A stretch of DNA of 64,000 bases from Candidatus Methanomethylophilaceae archaeon (GTDB lineage: Archaea > Thermoplasmatota > Thermoplasmata > Methanomassiliicoccales > Methanomethylophilaceae): contig CALUHR010000013.1 in the NCBI GenBank assembly GCA_944320495.1, positions 224,001 through 288,000 of the forward strand, given 5' to 3'. The position numbers were made by a program, and so were the translations under genes. The notes under the pieces were generated by a model. The model was not told where the DNA came from, searched no databases, and was given only the letters and a program-made list of their open reading frames with translations. This document shows positions 840 to 49,152 of this stretch, piece after piece. Position 1 is the stretch's first letter, and each line of letters opens with the position of its first letter.

Positions 840-2077
840 CAGGTCCCCTCCTCCCATCCTCCGATGTAGGAGAGCTGCTCCTCCGTGAGGGCGTCGATCT
901 CGACGCCCATGGACTCCAGCTTGATCCTGGCTATCTCCTGGTCGATGGCCTCCGGGACGTTGTGGACGCCCTTGGCGAGACCTTTGTAGTTCTTGACCAT
1001 GTGGATGAGGCCCAGGGCCTGGGTGGAGAAGCTCATGTCCATGATCTCGGCGGGGTGTCCCTGGCCGGCGGCCAGGTTCATGAGCCTGCCCTCGGCGATG
1101 AGGTACAGCCTCCTGCCGTCGGCCATGCGGTACTCCTCCACGAAGTCCCTGACGCGCTCCTTGGAGACGCTCATGGCCTCCAGGGCGGTCTTGCTGATCT
1201 CGTTGTCGAAGTGGCCCACGTTGCCCATGACGCATCCGTCCTTGGCTACCTTGAGGGCCTCGGCGGAGACGACGTCCTTGCATCCGGTGACCGTGATGAT
1301 GATGTCCGCCACGGCCGCGGCCTTCACCATGGGCATGACCTCGAACCCGTCCATCTTGGCCTCGATCGCCTTGATGGGGTCGACCTCGGTGACGATGACC
1401 GACGCCCCGAGACCCTTGGCGCGCATGGCGACGCCCTTGCCGCACCAACCGTATCCGGCGACGACGAGCCTCTTCCCCGCGACGATCAGGTTGGTGGCGT
1501 TCATCCATCCGTCGAAGGCGGACTGGCCGGTCCCGTAGCGGTTGTCGAACATGAACTTCATCTTCGCGTCGTTCACGTCCAGCACGGGGAACTCGAGGAC
1601 ACCGTCGTTGGCCATGGCCCTGAGCCTCTGGACGCCGGTGGTGGTCTCCTCGTTCGCCGCCTTCACGTTGGGCAGCGCGTCCCTCCTGGAGGTGTGGACC
1701 ATCGAGATGAGGTCCGCCCCGTCGTCGATGATGAAGTCCGGATGCATATCCAGTACGGTGTTGAGGTTGGCGTAGTACTCCTCCTGGGTCTCCCACTTCT
1801 TGGCGTAGACGTTGAGGCCGTACTCCTCCCTCAGCGCCATGGCGACGGAGTCGTCGGTCGAGAGGGGGTTGCAGCTCGCGAGCCTGACCTCGGCCCCGGC
1901 GTCCGCCAGGGTGACGGCGAGCATTCCGGTCTTCGCCTCGGTGTGGAGGGCCATGCCGACCTTGATGCCGGCCAGGGGCTTCTCCTCGATGAAGCGCTTC
2001 CTGATCGCCATGAGCACGGGCATGTGGTCCGCGGCCCAGTGGAGCCTCAGGGATCCGATCTTCGTGAGGTCGTCCAT
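839..2077 (-). CDS. ahcY: Adenosylhomocysteinase
   Basis: Motifs SCNPLST, EETTTG, DNRYGTGQS, GYGWCGKG and GHPAEIMDMSF. Confidence 0.97.
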   Translation of the reverse strand: MDDLTKIGSLRLHWAADHMPVLMAIRKRFIEEKPLAGIKVGMALHTEAKTGMLAVTLADAGAEVRLASCNPLSTDDSVAMALREEYGLNVYAKKWETQEEYYANLNTVLDMHPDFIIDDGADLISMVHTSRRDALPNVKAANEETTTGVQRLRAMANDGVLEFPVLDVNDAKMKFMFDNRYGTGQSAFDGWMNATNLIVAGKRLVVAGYGWCGKGVAMRAKGLGASVIVTEVDPIKAIEAKMDGFEVMPMVKAAAVADIIITVTGCKDVVSAEALKVAKDGCVMGNVGHFDNEISKTALEAMSVSKERVRDFVEEYRMADGRRLYLIAEGRLMNLAAGQGHPAEIMDMSFSTQALGLIHMVKNYKGLAKGVHNVPEAIDQEIARIKLESMGVEIDALTEEQLSYIGGWEEGT

Positions 2078-40088: not shown

Positions 40089-40244
40089 TTATTGGAACAG
40101 ATAGGTGTAGGCGAGGATTCCGACGATGAGGAGCGCCCCGAGCATCAGCATCCCGTAGGATATGATGTATATCGCGGAGAACGCCCGCTTGAACTTCACG
40201 GGGTCCTCCTTGATGTCCTCCAGGCGGTCCTCTATCGACTTCAC
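40089..40244 (-). CDS. Small single-TM protein (51 aa) at the end of the atp operon
   Basis: MKSIEDRLEDIKEDPVKFKRAFSAIYIISYGMLMLGALLIVGILAYTYLFQ; GTG overlaps the atpD TGA; GGAGGA SD. Below the ORF-track length cutoff. Confidence 0.7.
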   Translation of the reverse strand: MKSIEDRLEDIKEDPVKFKRAFSAIYIISYGMLMLGALLIVGILAYTYLFQ

Positions 40245-40876
40245 TCCTCCACCTCACCCTTTCCCTTGAGGTGTTTGAGACGGGTGGTGTTCTCGCGGTC
40301 CATCTCCTCGAGACGGAACTTGACGAACCTCTCCGACTCCTTGAGCTCGGGGATTATCTTGAACTCAAGGGCGTTGACACGCCTCTTGGTCTTCTCGATC
40401 TCGTCGAGCAGCTTCTTCATGGTGGTCTCCACCTCGGCGGCGCGGACGAGCGTGTCGAGAAGCTTCTCGAACGCCGCTGCGGCCTCCTCGATGTAGGCGG
40501 ATGTCGAGATCACACCATAGCCTTTGTCGAGCATGCTGGTGTGGATCCTCTCGGCCTCGACCTTGGGGACCATCATTCCCATGATGCTCTTGCTCCCGAG
40601 CTTGACCTGCGGGTCTGCCTTGAGGGCGTACGCCGCGCTCTTCACGGCGATCTCTCCCTCGACCGCTCTGGCGATGGTGATCTTCTCCATTGCCGACTCG
40701 TAGTCGGAGGAGACGCCCTCACGCATCTTCCTCGCCTTCTCCAGGACCTCGAAGAACTCGATGATGAGGCCGTCCCTCTTCATCTTCAGGATCTTGTACC
40801 CTCCCTGGGAGAGCTTGATCCTCTTCTTCAGGTCCAGGAGGACGGAGCGGTTGGGGGTGACATCGTGTGCGGCCAT
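40241..40876 (-). CDS. atpD: A1Ao ATP synthase subunit D
   Basis: LKMKRDGL and TKRRVNALE motifs. Confidence 0.96.
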   Translation of the reverse strand: MAAHDVTPNRSVLLDLKKRIKLSQGGYKILKMKRDGLIIEFFEVLEKARKMREGVSSDYESAMEKITIARAVEGEIAVKSAAYALKADPQVKLGSKSIMGMMVPKVEAERIHTSMLDKGYGVISTSAYIEEAAAAFEKLLDTLVRAAEVETTMKKLLDEIEKTKRRVNALEFKIIPELKESERFVKFRLEEMDRENTTRLKHLKGKGEVEE

Positions 40877-40880
40877 GGGA

Positions 40881-42260
40881 TCACTTCTTCGGCAGGTACT
40901 TCTCGATGTACTTGCGGTCGATCCTGGTCAGCTGGTCGAGGTCGAGCTCGGTGAAGATCTCCCATCCGATATCGAGGGTCTCCTCGATCGAACGGTCCTC
41001 GTCGATGCCCTGGCGGACGATGCGGTCCTCGAAGATGTCGGCGAAGTCCAGGAGCTTCCTGTCCTTGGCGGAGAGGGAGTCCTTTCCGACGATGGCCACG
41101 AGTCCGCGGAGGTCCTTACCCTCGGCGTAGGACGCATAGAGCTGGTCGGAGACCGCCTTGTGGTCCTCACGGGTCTTGCCCTTTCCGGTTCCGCCTCCCA
41201 TCAGCCTGGACAGGGACGAGGAGACGTTGACCGGCGGGTAGATACCGTTCCTGTGGAGCTCCATCGACAGAACGATCTGACCCTCGGTGATGTAACCGGA
41301 GAGGTCGGGGATCGGGTGGGTGATGTCTCCGCCGGGCATGGTCAGGATGGGGATCTGGGTGATGGAACCCTTCTTGCCCTTGATCCTTCCCGCACGCTCG
41401 TACAGCTGGGCGAGGTCGGTGTACATGTAACCGGGGTAACCGCGCCTTCCGGGCACCTCCTCACGGGCCGCTCCGATCTGACGGAGGGCCTCGCAGTAGT
41501 TGGTGATGTCGGTCATGATGACCAGCACCTGCATGCCCAGGTCGAACGCCATGTACTCCGCGGTGGTGAGACCGAGACGCGGGGTGAGGGTACGCTCGAC
41601 GGCGGGGTCGTCGGCGAGGTTCAGGAAGACGACGGCGTTCTTCAGAGCGCCGGTCCTCTCGAACTCCTTCATGAACATCTGCTTCTCTTCGTTGGTGATA
41701 CCCATGGCGATGAACACCACAGCGAACTCCTCGTTCTCGCCGCGGACCTTGGCCTGCCTGGCGATCTGAAGGGCCATCTCGTTGTGGGGGAGACCGGACT
41801 GCGAGAAGATCGGCAGCTTCTGTCCCCTGACGAGGGTGTTCATTCCGTCGATGGTCGAGATTCCCGTCTGGATGAAATCGGACGGGCTGTCCCTGGCCCA
41901 CGGGTTGATGGCGGCTCCGGTGATGTCGACCTCCTTCTCGGGGACGATCCTGGCTCCGCCGTCGAGGGGCTCTCCGGCTCCGGAGAGAACCCTTCCGAGC
42001 ATGTCCTTGGAGACGGGCATCTTCATGGTCTCGCCGAGGAAGCGAACGGACGCATCCCTGTCGACACCGGAGGTGCCCTCGAAGACCTGGACGACGACGA
42101 TGTCGTTGGACGAGTCGAGGACCTGTCCCCTCCTCATGGTACCGTCGGACATCCTGATGTTGACCATCTCGTAGTAACCGACGGGCTCGGTGTTCTTGAC
42201 GTACACCAGAGGTCCGGCGATCTGGGAGATCGTCTTGTACTCTTTGGATACTTCTGCCAT
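40881..42260 (-). CDS. atpB: A1Ao ATP synthase subunit B
   Basis: [19 protein letters not shown] and [14 protein letters not shown] motifs. Confidence 0.98.
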
Positions 42261-42265
42261 GTGAA

Positions 42266-43996
42266 TCACACTCCCAGCTCGGCGAACTGCTTGTCCATGT
42301 CCTCGCTGACGGCCTGAAGCTCGGCGTCGATGTTCTCCTCGTACTTGGCCTGGTTGAACCTGGACCTGACGGGGAGGTACGCGATCTTGTCGACCTGGAC
42401 GCCGGCCGCGAGGGCCTTGTCGGACAGGTCGGAGTACTTCTTGATCAGGCCGAGCATGACGTGCTGCCTCTGGATGGGGCAGTAGCAGTCCACGGGGTGG
42501 TACGCATTCTGCTGGAGGAAGATCTCACGGATCATCTTGGCGACCTCGAGGGTCATCTTCTGCTCGTCCGGCAGAGAGTCGGAACCGACCATCTGCACGA
42601 CCTCCTGCAGCTCGGACTCCTTCTGGAGGACCTGCATGGCCCACGCCCTGAGGGTGGGGAAGTCCTCGGCGACATTGGCCTTGTACCAGTCGACCAGCTG
42701 TTTGTCGTACATGGTGTACGAGGTCAGCCAGTTGATGGTGGGGAAGTGACGCCTCTCCCTCAGCTTGGTGTCCAGCGCCCAGAAGACGCGGACGATACGG
42801 AGGGTGTTCTGAGTGACCGGCTCGGACAGGTCTCCTCCGGGCGGGGAGACGGCTCCGATGACGGAGATGGATCCGTCCTCTCCACAGAGGGCCCTTGCAC
42901 GGCAGGCACGCTCGTAGAACTCGGACAGACGTCCGGCGAGGTACGCGGGGTAACCCTCCTCACCGGGCATCTCCTCGAGCCTGGAGGAGATCTCACGCAT
43001 GGCCTCGGCCCACCTGGAGGTGGAGTCGGCCATCAGCGCGACGTTGTATCCCATGTCGCGGAAGTACTCGGCGATGGTCATGCCGGTGTAGACGGACGCC
43101 TCACGGGCCGCCACAGGCATGTTGGAGGTGTTGGCGATCAGGACGGTCCTCTTCATCAGGGACTCGCCGGTCCTGGGGTCCACCAGCTCGGGGAACTCTG
43201 TCAGAACCTCGGTCATCTCGTTTCCGCGCTCGCCGCATCCGATGTAGACGACGATCTCGGCGTCGGAGTACTTGGCCAGGGACTGCTGGGTGACGGTCTT
43301 TCCGGTACCGAACGCACCGGGGATGGCGGCCGCACCTCCCTTGGCCAGGGGGAACATCGTGTCGAGGACACGGAGTCCGGTGACCAGGGGGACATCCGGC
43401 TGGTACTTCTCGGCGACGGGCCTGGGGACACGGACGGGCCAGTGCTGGCACATCGTGACCTCTTTGCCGTCGATGACGGCGACGGTCTCGTCGACGGTGA
43501 AGGATCCGCTCTTGATGGAGTCGATCTTTCCCTTCTTGATGTCGATGGGGACCATGATCTTGTGGACCATGGGCCCCTCCTGGACGGTACCGATGACCTG
43601 TCCAGCGGCGACCTCGTCTCCGACGTTGGCGACGGGGACGAAGTCCCATTTCTTCTCGTGGTCAAGACCGGGGGCGGAGACTCCGCGGTAGATGAAGTCT
43701 CCCATCTTCTCCCTGAGTACGGGCAGGGGCCTCTGGATTCCGTCGTAGACCGAGGTCAGGAGACCGGGTCCGAGCTCGACGGACAGGGGTTTGCCCGTGT
43801 TGGTGACGGGCTCACCAGGTTTGATACCGGACGTGTCCTCGTAAACCTGGATGATGGAGTAGTCGCCGATGATCTTGATGACCTCACCCATCAGCTGCTC
43901 CTTGCCCACGTGCACGACGTCGTACATCTTGGGGGAGATGCCTGTGGCGGTCACCACGGGTCCGGCGACCCTGTAGATTACACCTTCAGTGCTCAT
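42266..43996 (-). CDS. atpA: A1Ao ATP synthase subunit A
   Basis: [18 protein letters not shown] and [11 protein letters not shown] motifs; no intein. Confidence 0.98.
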
Positions 43997-44302
43997 TTAT
44001 TCATCCTCTGATTTGTATAAGTCAACTCCAATCGCTCTCTTCACCTTCTCACGGAGATCGCTCTGATCCCCTCCGACCGGCACGACGACGGGCTGGATCG
44101 AATCCATGACCCTGTGCCTGACGGCGAAAGAGAGGTTGTCCAGATCCTTCGCGTCCACTGCGAGGATACCGATGTTGGGCTGGGACATCGCCTCCAGCAT
44201 TTTTTCCTGGTAGTTGTCTTTCTCAGCAACGAAGACGCGCCTGATACCGGCGAGCCTGAAGCCGAGCACGAACTCATCGCTGCCTATTACTGCGATCTCC
44301 AT
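43997..44302 (-). CDS. atpF: A1Ao ATP synthase subunit F
   Basis: IAVIGSDEFVLGFRLAG and LREKVKRAIGVDL motifs. Confidence 0.95.
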   Translation of the reverse strand: MEIAVIGSDEFVLGFRLAGIRRVFVAEKDNYQEKMLEAMSQPNIGILAVDAKDLDNLSFAVRHRVMDSIQPVVVPVGGDQSDLREKVKRAIGVDLYKSEDE

Positions 44303-45357
44303 CGGATCACCAGCAACCCTTTGATGGTGTCTGCGTCCAGTCCGCTCTCCACTCCCCTCGAGATGGTCCTGATGTTGCTGACCTCGATCTCCTTGTGGAT
44401 CATGTAGTCGATGATGGGGACCACCGACAGGGGGTACATGTGGGAGAACTTGTTCGCGGCGGCGATCTCGTACTTCTTCATCTCGGTGACGACCTCCCTG
44501 ATGCTCACCTTGTCGGATTCCACGAGTCCCTTGATGGAGTCGTAGAATTCGAGGCGGGACAGGTCGGAGGACGCGGCGGCGATGGTCTCCGCGTTGGCGA
44601 GCTGAGTCGCGTAGCGGGTGTCGATCTGCCTTCCCCCGGGGATGATGTACTTCATCACGACCTCGCCGTGGATCCCCTCCGCCTTGAGCTTGAGGATCGT
44701 CTCGAGGTTCTTGATGTCGATCTCCGTCCTGACGTAGTCCTGGAACATCCTGGTCGGCCTGGAGGTGGGGTTGATGCTCTTGACCAGCCTCACGTAGTGG
44801 GCCTTGTCCAGGTAGTCCTCGATCTCTCCCAGGTTCCCGGTCGACTTGTAGGTCGAGATGACGTCCTGGGGGATCGTGATGTGTTCCATCTTGTCGTAGT
44901 TCGCGATTATGTCTTCCACACTGTCGAGCGAGAGCAGCTTCTCCAGAGACTCGGAGTCCAGACTTCCGGCGGGGACCAGGTCCTCCCTGATTCCCTCGGG
45001 GTCAAGTCCGTACGACTTGCCGCGCAGGATGACCTTCAGGTTCCAGATGTCCCACTTCTCGAGGTACGCCTGGACCATGCCCTTGAGCTCTCCCTGGGAG
45101 GCCTGCAGGATGCTGCTGAACACCTTCGCCATGTTGGTGTAGGTGGCGTGCTCCACGAGGTCCATCCCCTCCAGCCTGCCGGCGAGGTCGGTCATCTCCT
45201 TCTGATAACCGGACTCGCTGATGTAGCGGGAGATCTCCGGGACGCTCATGAGCAGCATCTTGTTGTAGTCCTCGTCCTTGAGGAGAAGGGCCTTCTTGGC
45301 CTTCACCCTGGACACGGCATACGCGTAGTTGCCTGCCCTTCCGCTGCGGTTGAACAT
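44302..45357 (-). CDS. atpC: A1Ao ATP synthase subunit C (ends at CGA 44304-44302, overlapping the atpF ATG)
   Basis: YAYAVSRVKAKK, WDIWNLKVILR and EVSNIR...LLVI. The standard-code ORF ends at 44287. Confidence 0.93.
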
Positions 45358-45362
45358 TGCTC

Positions 45363-45920
45363 TCACCCGAAGAGGATGTCGGACACCTTCTTGATCTCGC
45401 GGTCCCAGATGGACTGCAGGATCGTGGAGTACTGCATGTCGACCTCGACGGAGCCGTCCTCGCTCTGGAAGATCAGTCCGGAGGAGATCTTGGAGTCCTT
45501 CACGACCTCGCTGACACCGAGCTCGGCGGCGGTGAAGTCGTCCTTCTCGGACATGAGAGCCCTGGGGTTCTCGATGATGCCCTTGGCGACTTTGACCATT
45601 GCCTTGTACTGGGTGAGCTTCTCCGCGGCGGAGGCGCCCTCCAGGTCAGCGAGCATGCTGTCGAACGTCTGGGCGAGGATCTCCTTCTTCTTAGCAAGGA
45701 CGATCTTCTTGCTCTCGAGCTCGGCGCTGGAGAGCTCCTGGCGCTCGAGGCGCTCAATGGCCTCCTTCAGCCTCTTGTCCTCTTTCTCCTTCAACTCGGC
45801 GATCTTCGCCTCGGCGTCGGCGGTGATCTTCGCGACCTCCTCGTCAGCCTCGGCCTTCAGGGCAGCCGCCTTGGCGTCTGCATCCCTGGAGATCTCCTGA
45901 GTTACGTTCGCTAGTGCCAT
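45363..45920 (-). CDS. atpE: A1Ao ATP synthase subunit E
   Basis: Coiled-coil N-terminus, SSGLIFQSEDGSVEVD, and operon position. Confidence 0.92.
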   Translation of the reverse strand: MALANVTQEISRDADAKAAALKAEADEEVAKITADAEAKIAELKEKEDKRLKEAIERLERQELSSAELESKKIVLAKKKEILAQTFDSMLADLEGASAAEKLTQYKAMVKVAKGIIENPRALMSEKDDFTAAELGVSEVVKDSKISSGLIFQSEDGSVEVDMQYSTILQSIWDREIKKVSDILFG

Positions 45921-46201: not shown

Positions 46202-48274
46202 TTACGCGTTGGTTGAAACTGTTTTCTTGCGTTTGATTGCGAGAGGCTCAAACTCGATTCCTCCGCCGTCGAAGAACTTGGCCATGAACTCCACGTACTG
46301 CAACCTGAGACCGTGCAGACCGGCGGAGATGATAGCCAGAGTCCAGATCATAAGATGGCCGAAGGCGATCATGATCAGGCAGAACACCAGACCGACGATG
46401 CTTCCCTCGAATGATCCAGTTCCCGCGGTCGCGTCCCAGACATAGCCTCCGAACATGTCGATGGCGATGTAGTTGAACGCGAGCGCCATACCCGCCTTGG
46501 ACATACCGATGGCAGCCAGACGAGCGTATGAAAGGACGTTTCCGATGATTCCGGGCAGCTCCAGGATAGCCTGCGCACCCTCGTGGCGGTTCAGGACCGT
46601 TCCGACGATGATCAGGACGATACCGAGGATGATGCACACCAGGTCAACGGTCATCAGGCCCGACTCGAGCCAGAAGATAAGGTAGTTGGCGAGTCCGTAG
46701 CACATGAAGACGATTCCGAGGAAGGCGAGCAGCCAGCCGCCCTTCTCCATGAACGCGTGCTTGAATCCGTGCTGGATCGTCTTGTTGTAGATGGCGCATA
46801 TGTACCCCAGTGCGAGGTGCACGACACCGATGTAGACGGTCAGCTTCATCAGGAAGCCGATCCACTCGGCACCGATCTTGCTGACTCCGTGGCCCTCGGG
46901 CAGGAACGAGAAGAAGCCGGCGATGGCCTCGTGGTTGAGACCCAGCAGCTGCTCCCATGTATGGGTGACTCCATCAGTCGGGATGCCGACGAAGTGCATT
47001 CCGAGGCATTCTCCGAAGAAGAAGAATCCGAAGATGAATGCCCATATTCCTCCGAAGAAGAACACGGTGGCGATTGCGCGCCAGTCTTTGTGGTGCGTGA
47101 CCTTGAGGCCGTACGCTCCAAGGATTATGAACGGGATTGCATATCCCACGTCTCCGACCATGAACCCGAAGAACAGGGGGAAGAAGATGGCGATCAGGAT
47201 GGAAGGGTCAATCTCCTGATACTTGGGCACCGACACCAGCTTGGTGGGGTACTCGAACTCCTTCGCGACCACTCCGTTGTTCATCTTGGTCGGCGGTTCC
47301 CTGAACCTCTTCTCGATGTCGTCCACTCCGTCGAGGGACCTGCCGCGGGTCTCCTGGACCTCCACGTAGACGCTCTCGACCTTGGTCTCGAGCTCGTTCT
47401 TGACGAACCCGGCCTTGGACTCGGGCACCCACGCGTCGATCACGAAGGTGTACTCGCTGTTGGCAATCCTGAGGGGAAGCTCCCCTTTCTCGACCTCGAT
47501 GGACAACTCCTCATCGGAGGCTTCGAGGAAATCCGTATACTTCACCATGAGGCTCTCGATATGTTTTCCGATGCTGTCGAGCTCGCTCGTCGCAGCCTCT
47601 TCCTCGCGCGCAATCGCCGTGAGGGCGGCGGACGGGGATCCGGTGATGCCCTCGGGGACGACGATCTCGGAGAAGCCGTGCTCGGCCAGAATGCTCTGGA
47701 CCTTGTCACGGACCTCGTTCCTGGCGAAGACCGCTATGACATTGCCCTCCTTCTTGTCGAAGGAGGAGAAGACCTCCACATCCGCGTTGACGAGGTCTGT
47801 GGAGGGGTCGTCTGCGACGGTGCCGACCATGGAGAATATGCTCCTGTAACCGGAGTACATCTCGAGGTCGATCGGCAGCCTGGAAAGGATTTCGAGATTC
47901 CTCTTGGTAGCGCTTAGCTCGGTGATTCTCTGATTGAGATCATTCCGCCTGTCGAAGACGGCATTAACCTCCGCCTCGACAGTCTCGACGCTGTCAGATG
48001 AAATCTGGCTCTTGATCTCGGCCTCGGGTATGGGGTTGGACTTCACCTTGGGGGTGATGCCGAGTCCCTTCTCCATCGCACGCACCTTCAGCAGCCTCTC
48101 GGATGCCTTAGGCGAGTACGGACGGGAAGTCCCGAGACTGAAACCTTCATCCGCGCCGACGGTATGATCGATCAGGTGGATGGATCCTACATCGTAGATG
48201 ACCTGGATGGCATCGTCGATGTGGGATTTGGCACCCACAATCACAATCCTACTCATCGACTCAGGAAGTGACAT
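46202..48274 (-). CDS. atpI: A1Ao ATP synthase subunit I (a)
   Basis: FFGFMVGDVGY, NVLSYARLAA and HGLRLQYVEF motifs. Confidence 0.96.
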   Translation of the reverse strand: MSLPESMSRIVIVGAKSHIDDAIQVIYDVGSIHLIDHTVGADEGFSLGTSRPYSPKASERLLKVRAMEKGLGITPKVKSNPIPEAEIKSQISSDSVETVEAEVNAVFDRRNDLNQRITELSATKRNLEILSRLPIDLEMYSGYRSIFSMVGTVADDPSTDLVNADVEVFSSFDKKEGNVIAVFARNEVRDKVQSILAEHGFSEIVVPEGITGSPSAALTAIAREEEAATSELDSIGKHIESLMVKYTDFLEASDEELSIEVEKGELPLRIANSEYTFVIDAWVPESKAGFVKNELETKVESVYVEVQETRGRSLDGVDDIEKRFREPPTKMNNGVVAKEFEYPTKLVSVPKYQEIDPSILIAIFFPLFFGFMVGDVGYAIPFIILGAYGLKVTHHKDWRAIATVFFFGGIWAFIFGFFFFGECLGMHFVGIPTDGVTHTWEQLLGLNHEAIAGFFSFLPEGHGVSKIGAEWIGFLMKLTVYIGVVHLALGYICAIYNKTIQHGFKHAFMEKGGWLLAFLGIVFMCYGLANYLIFWLESGLMTVDLVCIILGIVLIIVGTVLNRHEGAQAILELPGIIGNVLSYARLAAIGMSKAGMALAFNYIAIDMFGGYVWDATAGTGSFEGSIVGLVFCLIMIAFGHLMIWTLAIISAGLHGLRLQYVEFMAKFFDGGGIEFEPLAIKRKKTVSTNA

Positions 48275-48593
48275 TTAGGGTCCTCTCGAATTCATTTTTG
48301 AGAAAATCTTTGACTTCCTGCATTTTCGCCTCGGAGCCCTTGGTGAAGGTCTCGGCCTCCAGCCTGCCGGTGGCAAGCATGGACTCGCGCTTGACCTTCA
48401 GGTCGGCGGTCTCCTTGGCGATCGCGGATTCGTAAGAGCTGCGCATCTGAGCCTCAGCGTCCTGAATCTTCTTCACAGAATCCCTGCGGGATTCGGCGAT
48501 GGCGGACTTCTTGTCGGCCTCGGCCTGAGCGACCTTGGCGTCGGCATCCGCCTCCGCTTTCTTAATTTCCGAAAGTATGTCGATTCGGCTCAA
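48261..48593 (-). CDS. atpH: A1Ao ATP synthase subunit H
   Basis: IL.EIKKAEADAD coiled coil; first gene of the operon. The likely TTG start puts CGA at codon 3 (see findings). Confidence 0.85.
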   Translation of the reverse strand: MSRIDILSEIKKAEADADAKVAQAEADKKSAIAESRRDSVKKIQDAEAQMRSSYESAIAKETADLKVKRESMLATGRLEAETFTKGSEAKMQEVKDFLKNEFERTLNVTS

Positions 48594-48702
48594 ATTCAAC
48601 ACTCCCCGACCCTAGGAGTTCGTATCTTCTCGCGATACTTAACTATAACCCCCTCCAGAGGGTGCTGGGTGGCGGACGGCACGATAAGAGCCAGACGCTC
48701 CA

Positions 48703-49152
48703 TCATTGGAGATGGAACTGTCTTGTCACAATGTCAGTCTCTTTGAGAAGGCTGTGGGACAGATCGTCGATGTATCCCTCGTCGTAGACGATCTCCCTGA
48801 TTCCCGCGTTGATGAGGATCTTGGCACACATGGAGCACGGGAACGTGGTCGTGTATATCGTCGCCCCGTTCACGCTGACGCCGAAATATGCGGCCTGGGT
48901 CACCGCGTTCTGTTCTGCGTGGACGCCCCTACACAGCTCGTGCCTGGTCCCGGACGGGATGTTCATCTGGACTCTGATACAACCGAGCTCCTCGCAGTGG
49001 CGCGTACCCTTGGGGGAACCGTTGTAGCCCGTGGACAGAACCCTCTTGTCCTTGACGATGACGGCCCCTACCTTCCTCCTGAGGCATGTGGACCTCGTGG
49101 AGACGAGCCGGGCCATCTGCATAAAGTACTCGTCGTTGCTGGGTCTGTCCAT
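48703..49152 (-). CDS. dCMP deaminase family protein
   Basis: [22 protein letters not shown] and PCSMC zinc motifs. Confidence 0.92.

Follow-up and report, generated by a model that had tools for sequence, protein, structure and literature searches.

The ATP synthase operon and the start of atpH

The window analyzed here is a stretch of 64,000 nucleotides (C13:224001-288000) in a 1.77 Mb assembly, 61% G+C, to which we refer as G000; pylS, pylC, and pylD are present in this genome. An archaeal A-type ATP synthase operon with the gene order atpH-I-K-E-C-F-A-B-D spans 48.6 kb to 40.2 kb on the minus strand, an order that is kept in relatives and that bears out the placement of atpH, in an earlier note on this DNA, as the first gene of the operon. 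The atpH coding sequence (48261..48593, minus strand) consists of 110 codons and a TGA stop (48263-48261), and encodes a putative subunit H. Its product had no match in Pfam and aligned weakly, below the cut-off of 48.5, with the AhaH model TIGR02926 (23.3 bits, E 5.7e-5), residues 7-90 corresponding to positions 1-84 of the 85 in the model. The gene stands at the head of the operon, directly upstream of and overlapping atpI, and the genes next to it are clearly recognized as those of subunits I, K, E, C, and F. The atpI gene (subunit I/a; 46202..48274, minus strand; NF004430, E 3.6e-156) begins at an ATG (48274) located 14 nt upstream of the end of atpH, giving a 14-nt overlap (48261-48274, minus strand), and has its own upstream GAGG motif. 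At the far end of the operon, atpA, atpB, and atpD (40241..43996, minus strand) contain no in-frame CGA.

Three features precede or open the atpH reading frame, all on the minus strand. A Shine-Dalgarno-like GGGGAG (48604..48609) is separated by a 10-nt spacer from a TTG start codon (48591..48593), and the third codon is an in-frame CGA (48585..48587) followed by A. The order of these elements as first described, GGGGAG and then TTG AGC CGA ATC GAC ATA CTT, was confirmed, with the TTG at 48593. That description had added that no ATG, GTG, or TTG follows for about 25 codons; the absence is real, but the gap is longer, 36 codons, with the next candidate a GTG at codon 40. Farther upstream lies a putative TATA-like A/T-rich box (48635..48648, minus strand), read from the sequence, which a TTAAGTA box in relatives resembles. 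Directly upstream of atpH on the same strand is a gene (48703-49152) similar to dCMP deaminase/ComEB (131 bits, below the cut-off), which also gave weak scores against anti-phage dCTP deaminase and TadA models.

Conservation of atpH codon 3

Thirty relatives, which span several families of the order, had only TTG, GTG, or ATG in the start column, about 10 nt after a conserved GGGGAG, the motif and its spacing being kept order-wide. Codon 3 encoded Arg in all 30, as AGA, AGG, CGG, or CGA; the statement in the earlier note that AtpH orthologues begin MSR is true for this order in the form M-S/T/N-R. A start column in which TTG, GTG, and ATG replace one another, and an Arg that is maintained across both the AGR and the CGN codon families, indicate a real start and a selected Arg. 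By sequence comparison, the CGA of atpH is thus part of the reading frame and occupies a position where Arg is conserved, in agreement with the proposal that it is read here as Arg and constitutes an exception to a CGA stop.

Among 48 genomes of the genus, codon 3 was CGA in 38, CGG in nine, and CGT in one; the CGA is found in all 38 genomes of the window's sub-lineage, as well as in other genera of the family. A set of 49 named public loci, which overlaps the 48-genome set and adds other genera (Methanoplasma, Methanomicula, COG_1, and termite-gut MAGs), yielded 43 CGA, five CGG, and one CGT. Because the same CGA is shared by 38 genus assemblies that were made independently, and by other genera as well, a miscalled base, which had been raised as a way to remove the exception, is excluded. 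To judge from this distribution, the CGA at codon 3 is ancestral to the family and older than the use of the codon as a stop. The base after it is A in every genome that keeps the CGA.

The conservation extends beyond the codon itself. In several genera (loci L272-L321), the region at 48573-48612 (minus strand), comprising the Shine-Dalgarno motif and seven codons (GTCGGGGAG, about 8-9 nt, and TTG AGC CGA ACT GAC ATA CTT), shows hardly any nucleotide change, while the remainder of AtpH drops to 51-60% identity. Within the CGA-bearing group, codons 2, 3, 5, 6, and 13 of atpH showed no variation at all, and synonymous variation was found at four of the nine amino-acid-invariant codons among codons 2-15, compared with 22 of 30 farther downstream. 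As codons 2, 5, and 6 are as invariant as codon 3, retention of the CGA may reflect a general nucleotide constraint on this segment rather than selection for CGA.

CGA as a terminator

CGA usage in G000 was evaluated in approximately 1059 self-trained long ORFs. By successive ORF decile, the in-frame CGAs numbered 382, 165, 57, 22, 9, 8, 16, 33, 69, and 258, and the central 60% of the ORFs contained 0.57 CGA per 1000 codons. TTA was equally rare mid-gene but showed no pile-up at ORF ends. Past the late CGAs, the codon-based coding score fell from +0.35 to -0.41, compared with only a slight drop for the CGT, CGG, and AGA controls, and sequence that was coding-like on both sides flanked just 8 of the 1019 in-frame CGAs. 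A terminal CGA was present in 187 of the 1059 long ORFs (about 18%).

A terminal CGA also occurs within the ATP synthase operon. The atpC gene (44302..45366, minus strand), which would terminate at CGA if this codon is a stop, ends in GTG ATC CGA, and the AhaC and NF002268 profiles finish at residue 353-354. The CGA (44302..44304) overlaps the ATG of atpF (43997..44302, minus strand; NF002577, E 4e-29) as CGATG (44304-44300). The orthologous junction reads TGATG in G008, G054, G048, and G047, and TAATG in G030. This junction is direct local evidence for CGA as a stop in the same operon as atpH.

Terminator fractions in relatives were obtained from samples of 50-400 kb (loci L129-L138, L207-L226, and L334-L373). 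CGA was rare inside genes in every genus member sampled, and its use as a terminator was patchy: strong in G000, G047, G078, and G051/G054, and almost absent from G046, G048, G055, and G008. The strongest signal was that of G047, in which 56 of 159 long ORFs (35%) had a late CGA, followed by G078, from another genus, with 28%, and G000 with the 18% given above; a late-CGA pile-up was also present in G051 and G054. The corresponding values were 2.6% in the complete genome G046, about 1% in G048, and about 1.5% in G008, a member of the clade with CGG at atpH codon 3.

The sequence downstream of terminal CGAs in G000 carries signs that these stops leak. The next in-frame stop lay a median of 6 codons after a terminal CGA, compared with 14 codons after standard stops (p 2e-12), an effect that survived a truncation control in which the tails were capped at 40 codons (medians 5 vs. 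10, p 1e-7); in G047, the medians were 10.5 (CGA) and 13 (standard). The following base was biased as well: A followed 6.4% of terminal CGAs, compared with 21.9% of standard stops (p 1e-7), and was the rarest context, with T following 51%. Together with the retained cognate tRNA (discussed later), the close back-up stops and the rarity of A support the suggestion of a leaky or ambiguous stop. Only in G000 was a following A strongly avoided; the trend was weaker in G047 (16%) and G078 (15%). We rejected the weaker avoidance in G047 as proof of competition by the tRNA, the samples being too small.

A different form of ambiguity, in which internal CGAs would cluster in the first 10 or so codons and recoding would depend on position, was not supported as a general rule by the counts. 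Across the genome, codons 2-13 contained 0.71 CGA per 1000 codons; in almost every one of the nine cases an ATG comes within a few codons, and most are attributable to mis-called starts, while AGA, AAA, GAA, and ATA were 2-5 fold enriched in the same interval. The only early CGA with both a Shine-Dalgarno motif and a following A proved to be the mis-called start of an amidohydrolase gene.

The tRNA-Arg(UCG) gene and its loss in one genome

Outside the window, G000 encodes a tRNA-Arg(UCG) (C13:413317-413390), beside tRNAs with the anticodons GCG, CCG, UCU, and CCU. Comparison of 11 orthologues revealed compensatory changes at six stem pairs, demonstrating that its structure is constrained. None of these 11 aligned orthologues has a pair between positions 31 and 39. 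Of 62 genus genomes, 48 contained this tRNA type according to a covariance model. A different tRNA-Arg(UCG) occurs in the nine genomes in which codon 3 of atpH is CGG, with the anticodon loop CCUCGAC and C at position 33; the anticodon arm is canonical in other families and in other genera of the family. Within the genus, codons other than CGA at codon 3 were limited to this C33-tRNA clade (CGG) and to a single tRNA-deleted MAG, G047 (CGT).

Two ideas about this tRNA were discarded or weakened on closer inspection. BLAST had suggested loss of the tRNA in the CGG clade, and its presence or absence was considered as a clade marker until the covariance model found the divergent C33 copy. Likewise, the 31-39 mismatch was considered as a cause of stop usage, an idea weakened by G078, which combines CGA as a terminator with a canonical tRNA; G046 has few CGA stops despite a tRNA assigned to the mismatched type by its 97.8-bit orthologue score. 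The tRNA-Arg(UCG) is atypical throughout the genus (loci L033-L043 and L080-L097).

G047 is a single MAG (Thermoplasmata archaeon SIG8), 87% complete, and no tRNA-Arg(UCG) was found anywhere in this 87% complete assembly. Its syntenic site lies inside a contig (L230/L232) and consists of 410 nt without a tRNA; the genes on either side are those that border the tRNA locus in G000, G013, and G048. A deletion at this site was seen only in G047; apparent losses in G006, G062, and G077 were due to contigs that break exactly at the tRNA locus. The codons of G047 differ at three sites. At atpH, codon 3 is CGT (L169). Within the aRF1 gene, an in-frame CGA (AA[R]LKTY) that all 10 of the other genomes checked retain (G000, G062, G054, G048, G008, G006, G044, G015, G077, and G012) is CGC in G047 (L242). 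The codon at the GmhA/GmhB junction, CGA in G000, G048, and G054 and AAA in G030, is TAG (L245). In the tRNA-less genome, both sense CGAs have thus become other Arg codons, and the junction CGA has become another stop. From these comparisons, G047 looks like a completed reassignment, with the tRNA lost and the codon gone from the checked sense sites, which G000 does not resemble. The correlation between tRNA and codon rests on few events, namely one loss (G047) and one CGG clade.

The YxCxxxF motif of aRF1 (loci L235, L238-L242, and L247-L251) varied by lineage, reading YRCDSTF in G000, G062, G047, G006, and G077, YRCDSQF in G054, G048, and G012, and YRCDSDF in G008, G015, and G044. The NIKS region was unchanged between lineages.

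A probable dual meaning of CGA and its alternatives

In G000, the same codon ends genes (atpC) and fills conserved sense positions (Arg-3 of AtpH and the Arg of aRF1). We consider it likely, on comparative grounds, that CGA is both a leaky stop and an Arg codon in this genome, and that the CGA at codon 3 of atpH is a sense relic which the retained tRNA-Arg(UCG) decodes. It would be an ancestral Arg codon that survived a near-complete removal of CGA from genes in the lineage, and that sits in a near-invariant 5' segment, TTG AGC CGA ACT/ATC GAC ATA CTT. Termination at CGA would presumably be carried out by aRF1, and decoding as Arg by the retained tRNA, which at atpH would have to win often enough to supply full-length subunit H. 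The A after the atpH CGA, the context least used at terminal CGAs, probably favors reading by the tRNA. In the aRF1 gene the base after the sense CGA is C, and at the GmhA/GmhB junction it is G; the following base can therefore be at most a contributing factor, and does not define the sense sites alone. The atpH start, its conserved Arg and CGA, the intact tRNA under constraint, the CGA stop of atpC, and the signs of leakage are shown by the sequences, and the assignment of a reading factor and a rate to the individual CGA sites is inferred. A broader proposal has, in our estimate, an even chance of being right: that CGA is truly dual in meaning within one operon (Arg in atpH, stop in atpC), as set by competition between tRNA-Arg(UCG) and aRF1 and by local context, and that relatives represent successive stages of reassignment, from a codon almost unused but sense (G008, G046, and G048), through an ambiguous one (G000 and G078), to a completed change (G047).

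Several other explanations would remove either the exception or the stop. Sequencing error or RNA editing, for instance A-to-I conversion to a CGI that is read as CGG, would eliminate the CGA altogether, and the cytidine/deoxycytidylate-deaminase-family gene just upstream of atpH (48703-49152), with its weak TadA-like score, could be cited for editing, although it offers nothing direct and scores best as a dCMP deaminase/ComEB, below all cut-offs. The base is shared by at least 38 independent assemblies, and the site-specific editing raised in the earlier note found no counterpart at the site, which has no tRNA-Arg-like UACG loop motif, no Rfam match, and no significant local structure (MFE z-score -0.19, with a weak alifold consensus); we regard this explanation as extremely unlikely. 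Programmed read-through with a stimulatory RNA element is likewise not supported. Highly improbable, too, is a start of AtpH located 3' of the CGA, whether initiation uses a non-canonical codon or resumes once a Met-Ser mini-ORF has been translated, which would leave the CGA outside the mature coding sequence. The TIGR02926 alignment does begin only at residue 7, and two near-cognate starts are present, ATA at codon 6 and ATT at codon 10. Such a start is at odds, however, with a column that switches only among TTG, GTG, and ATG order-wide at a constant Shine-Dalgarno spacing, with the codon-like variation of codons 2-7 (third-position changes and exchanges between AGR and CGR for Arg), and with the distance of at least 19 nt from the Shine-Dalgarno motif to any downstream candidate; moreover, loss of the tRNA in G047 would then exert no pressure, and yet the site there is CGT. 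That CGA might be merely a very rare Arg codon, with no stop and no exception, is suggested by the presence of its cognate tRNA, by the near absence of CGA from gene ends in G046, G048, and G008, and by the comparable rarity of TTA mid-gene. We think this very unlikely in view of the 258 CGAs in the last decile, against 8-9 in middle deciles, a pile-up that TTA lacks, the non-coding-like sequence past late CGAs, the enrichment of back-up stops after terminal CGAs, and the atpC CGA, which stands exactly where five relatives have TGA or TAA.

The earlier note had also proposed a regulatory throttle on the first gene of the operon. In this scenario, CGA would mostly terminate translation after Met-Ser and, as a throttle or sensor under selection, would make the output of subunit H and of the operon depend on the balance of release factor and tRNA-Arg(UCG). 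CGA does end genes in G000, the TTG start is weak, a similar in-frame CGA is kept in the aRF1 gene, and the atpH CGA is invariant in 38 genomes, all of which would fit such a device. Nevertheless, the CGA is also present in genera and genomes that barely use CGA terminators (2.6% in G046 and about 1% in G048), and where the tRNA is altered or lost the atpH codon becomes CGG or CGT, not a stop, in contrast to the GmhA/GmhB junction of G047, which becomes TAG. A-type ATP synthases need subunit H at two copies per complex, which leaves no obvious reason for a brake, and atpI has a GAGG motif of its own. Because the site predates stop usage and turns into plain Arg codons rather than stops, a conserved throttle is not supported, and we judge this scenario unlikely; the atpH CGA may nonetheless lower output in G000.

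Relation to known codes

Ambiguous codes in which one codon has both stop and sense meanings are found in ciliates (Condylostoma magnum, karyorelictids) and in the trypanosomatid Blastocrithidia, where standard stops gained a sense meaning and termination is tied to the nearness of the mRNA 3' end and poly(A). The arrangement suggested here from sequence resembles these in that one codon would be terminator and sense codon in the same cell, with the cognate tRNA beside the release factor. It differs in that a sense codon would have gained a stop meaning, in an archaeon, and in that a handful of relic sense sites remain, no general positional rule having been found near starts. Sense-to-stop changes are known from organelles (NCBI tables 2, 22, and 23, for AGA/AGG, UCA, and UUA), and, as in these, a sense codon ends a gene (atpC) that in relatives closes with a standard stop. 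Organelles with such a code have lost the cognate tRNA and no longer use the codon at sense positions, whereas both the tRNA and conserved sense sites are kept here, and only G047 resembles the completed state. The prfB gene (RF2), which is autoregulated through an in-frame UGA, offers a parallel in its conserved stop-like codon early in an essential gene; unlike RF2, AtpH is no translation factor, and its gene has no frameshift signal and a site that would predate the stop meaning.

Among archaea, UAG is reported to be read as pyrrolysine or as a stop in methylamine-using methanogens (bioRxiv 10.1101/2025.06.11.659114). That system has in common with the one proposed here a single codon for which a tRNA and aRF1 compete, in archaea of the Methanomassiliicoccales type, but it proceeds from stop to sense with a dedicated tRNA and synthetase, whereas here an ordinary tRNA-Arg would act on an otherwise terminating codon. 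In two hydrothermal-vent archaeal assemblies, CGA is absent from recognizable domains, and a stop was raised as a possibility (bioRxiv 10.64898/2026.04.02.715157). Those assemblies resemble G000 in this respect, but they belong to an unrelated lineage in which tRNA(UCG) was not found and CGG is Trp, and neither a terminator test nor sense exceptions were reported (bioRxiv 10.64898/2026.04.02.715157).

No description of CGA as a stop in Methanomassiliicoccales was found in the literature that we searched. What is new here is the link to the tRNA and the uneven distribution of CGA terminators among genomes. If the dual meaning is real, this lineage would be a natural example, in a free-living organism, of the ambiguous intermediate through which a codon passes from sense to stop; such a stage has been proposed by theory, and to our knowledge has not been seen outside organelles. 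G047 would then indicate the state at completion, with the tRNA lost and the last sense CGAs replaced. Three defined codons, in atpH, in aRF1, and at the end of atpC, are open to a direct proteomic test of the code.

For annotation, a gene caller that knows CGA as Arg alone would get about one-sixth of the genes wrong, and one that knows it as a stop alone would mis-annotate essential genes such as atpH and aRF1. The pylC gene of G000 (C9:67824-67863; L237 ~1825-1864, minus strand), which has no canonical start, was considered as a second case of an early sense CGA and rejected: its relatives start 10 codons downstream, and the CGA is the end of the overlapping pylS. The start column contains ACG behind GGGGGA in G000, and ATG or GTG, 2-3 codons before IVGG, in relatives. 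The pylC start of G000 would thus be either a non-canonical ACG or a GTG located 10 codons upstream with an in-frame CGA.
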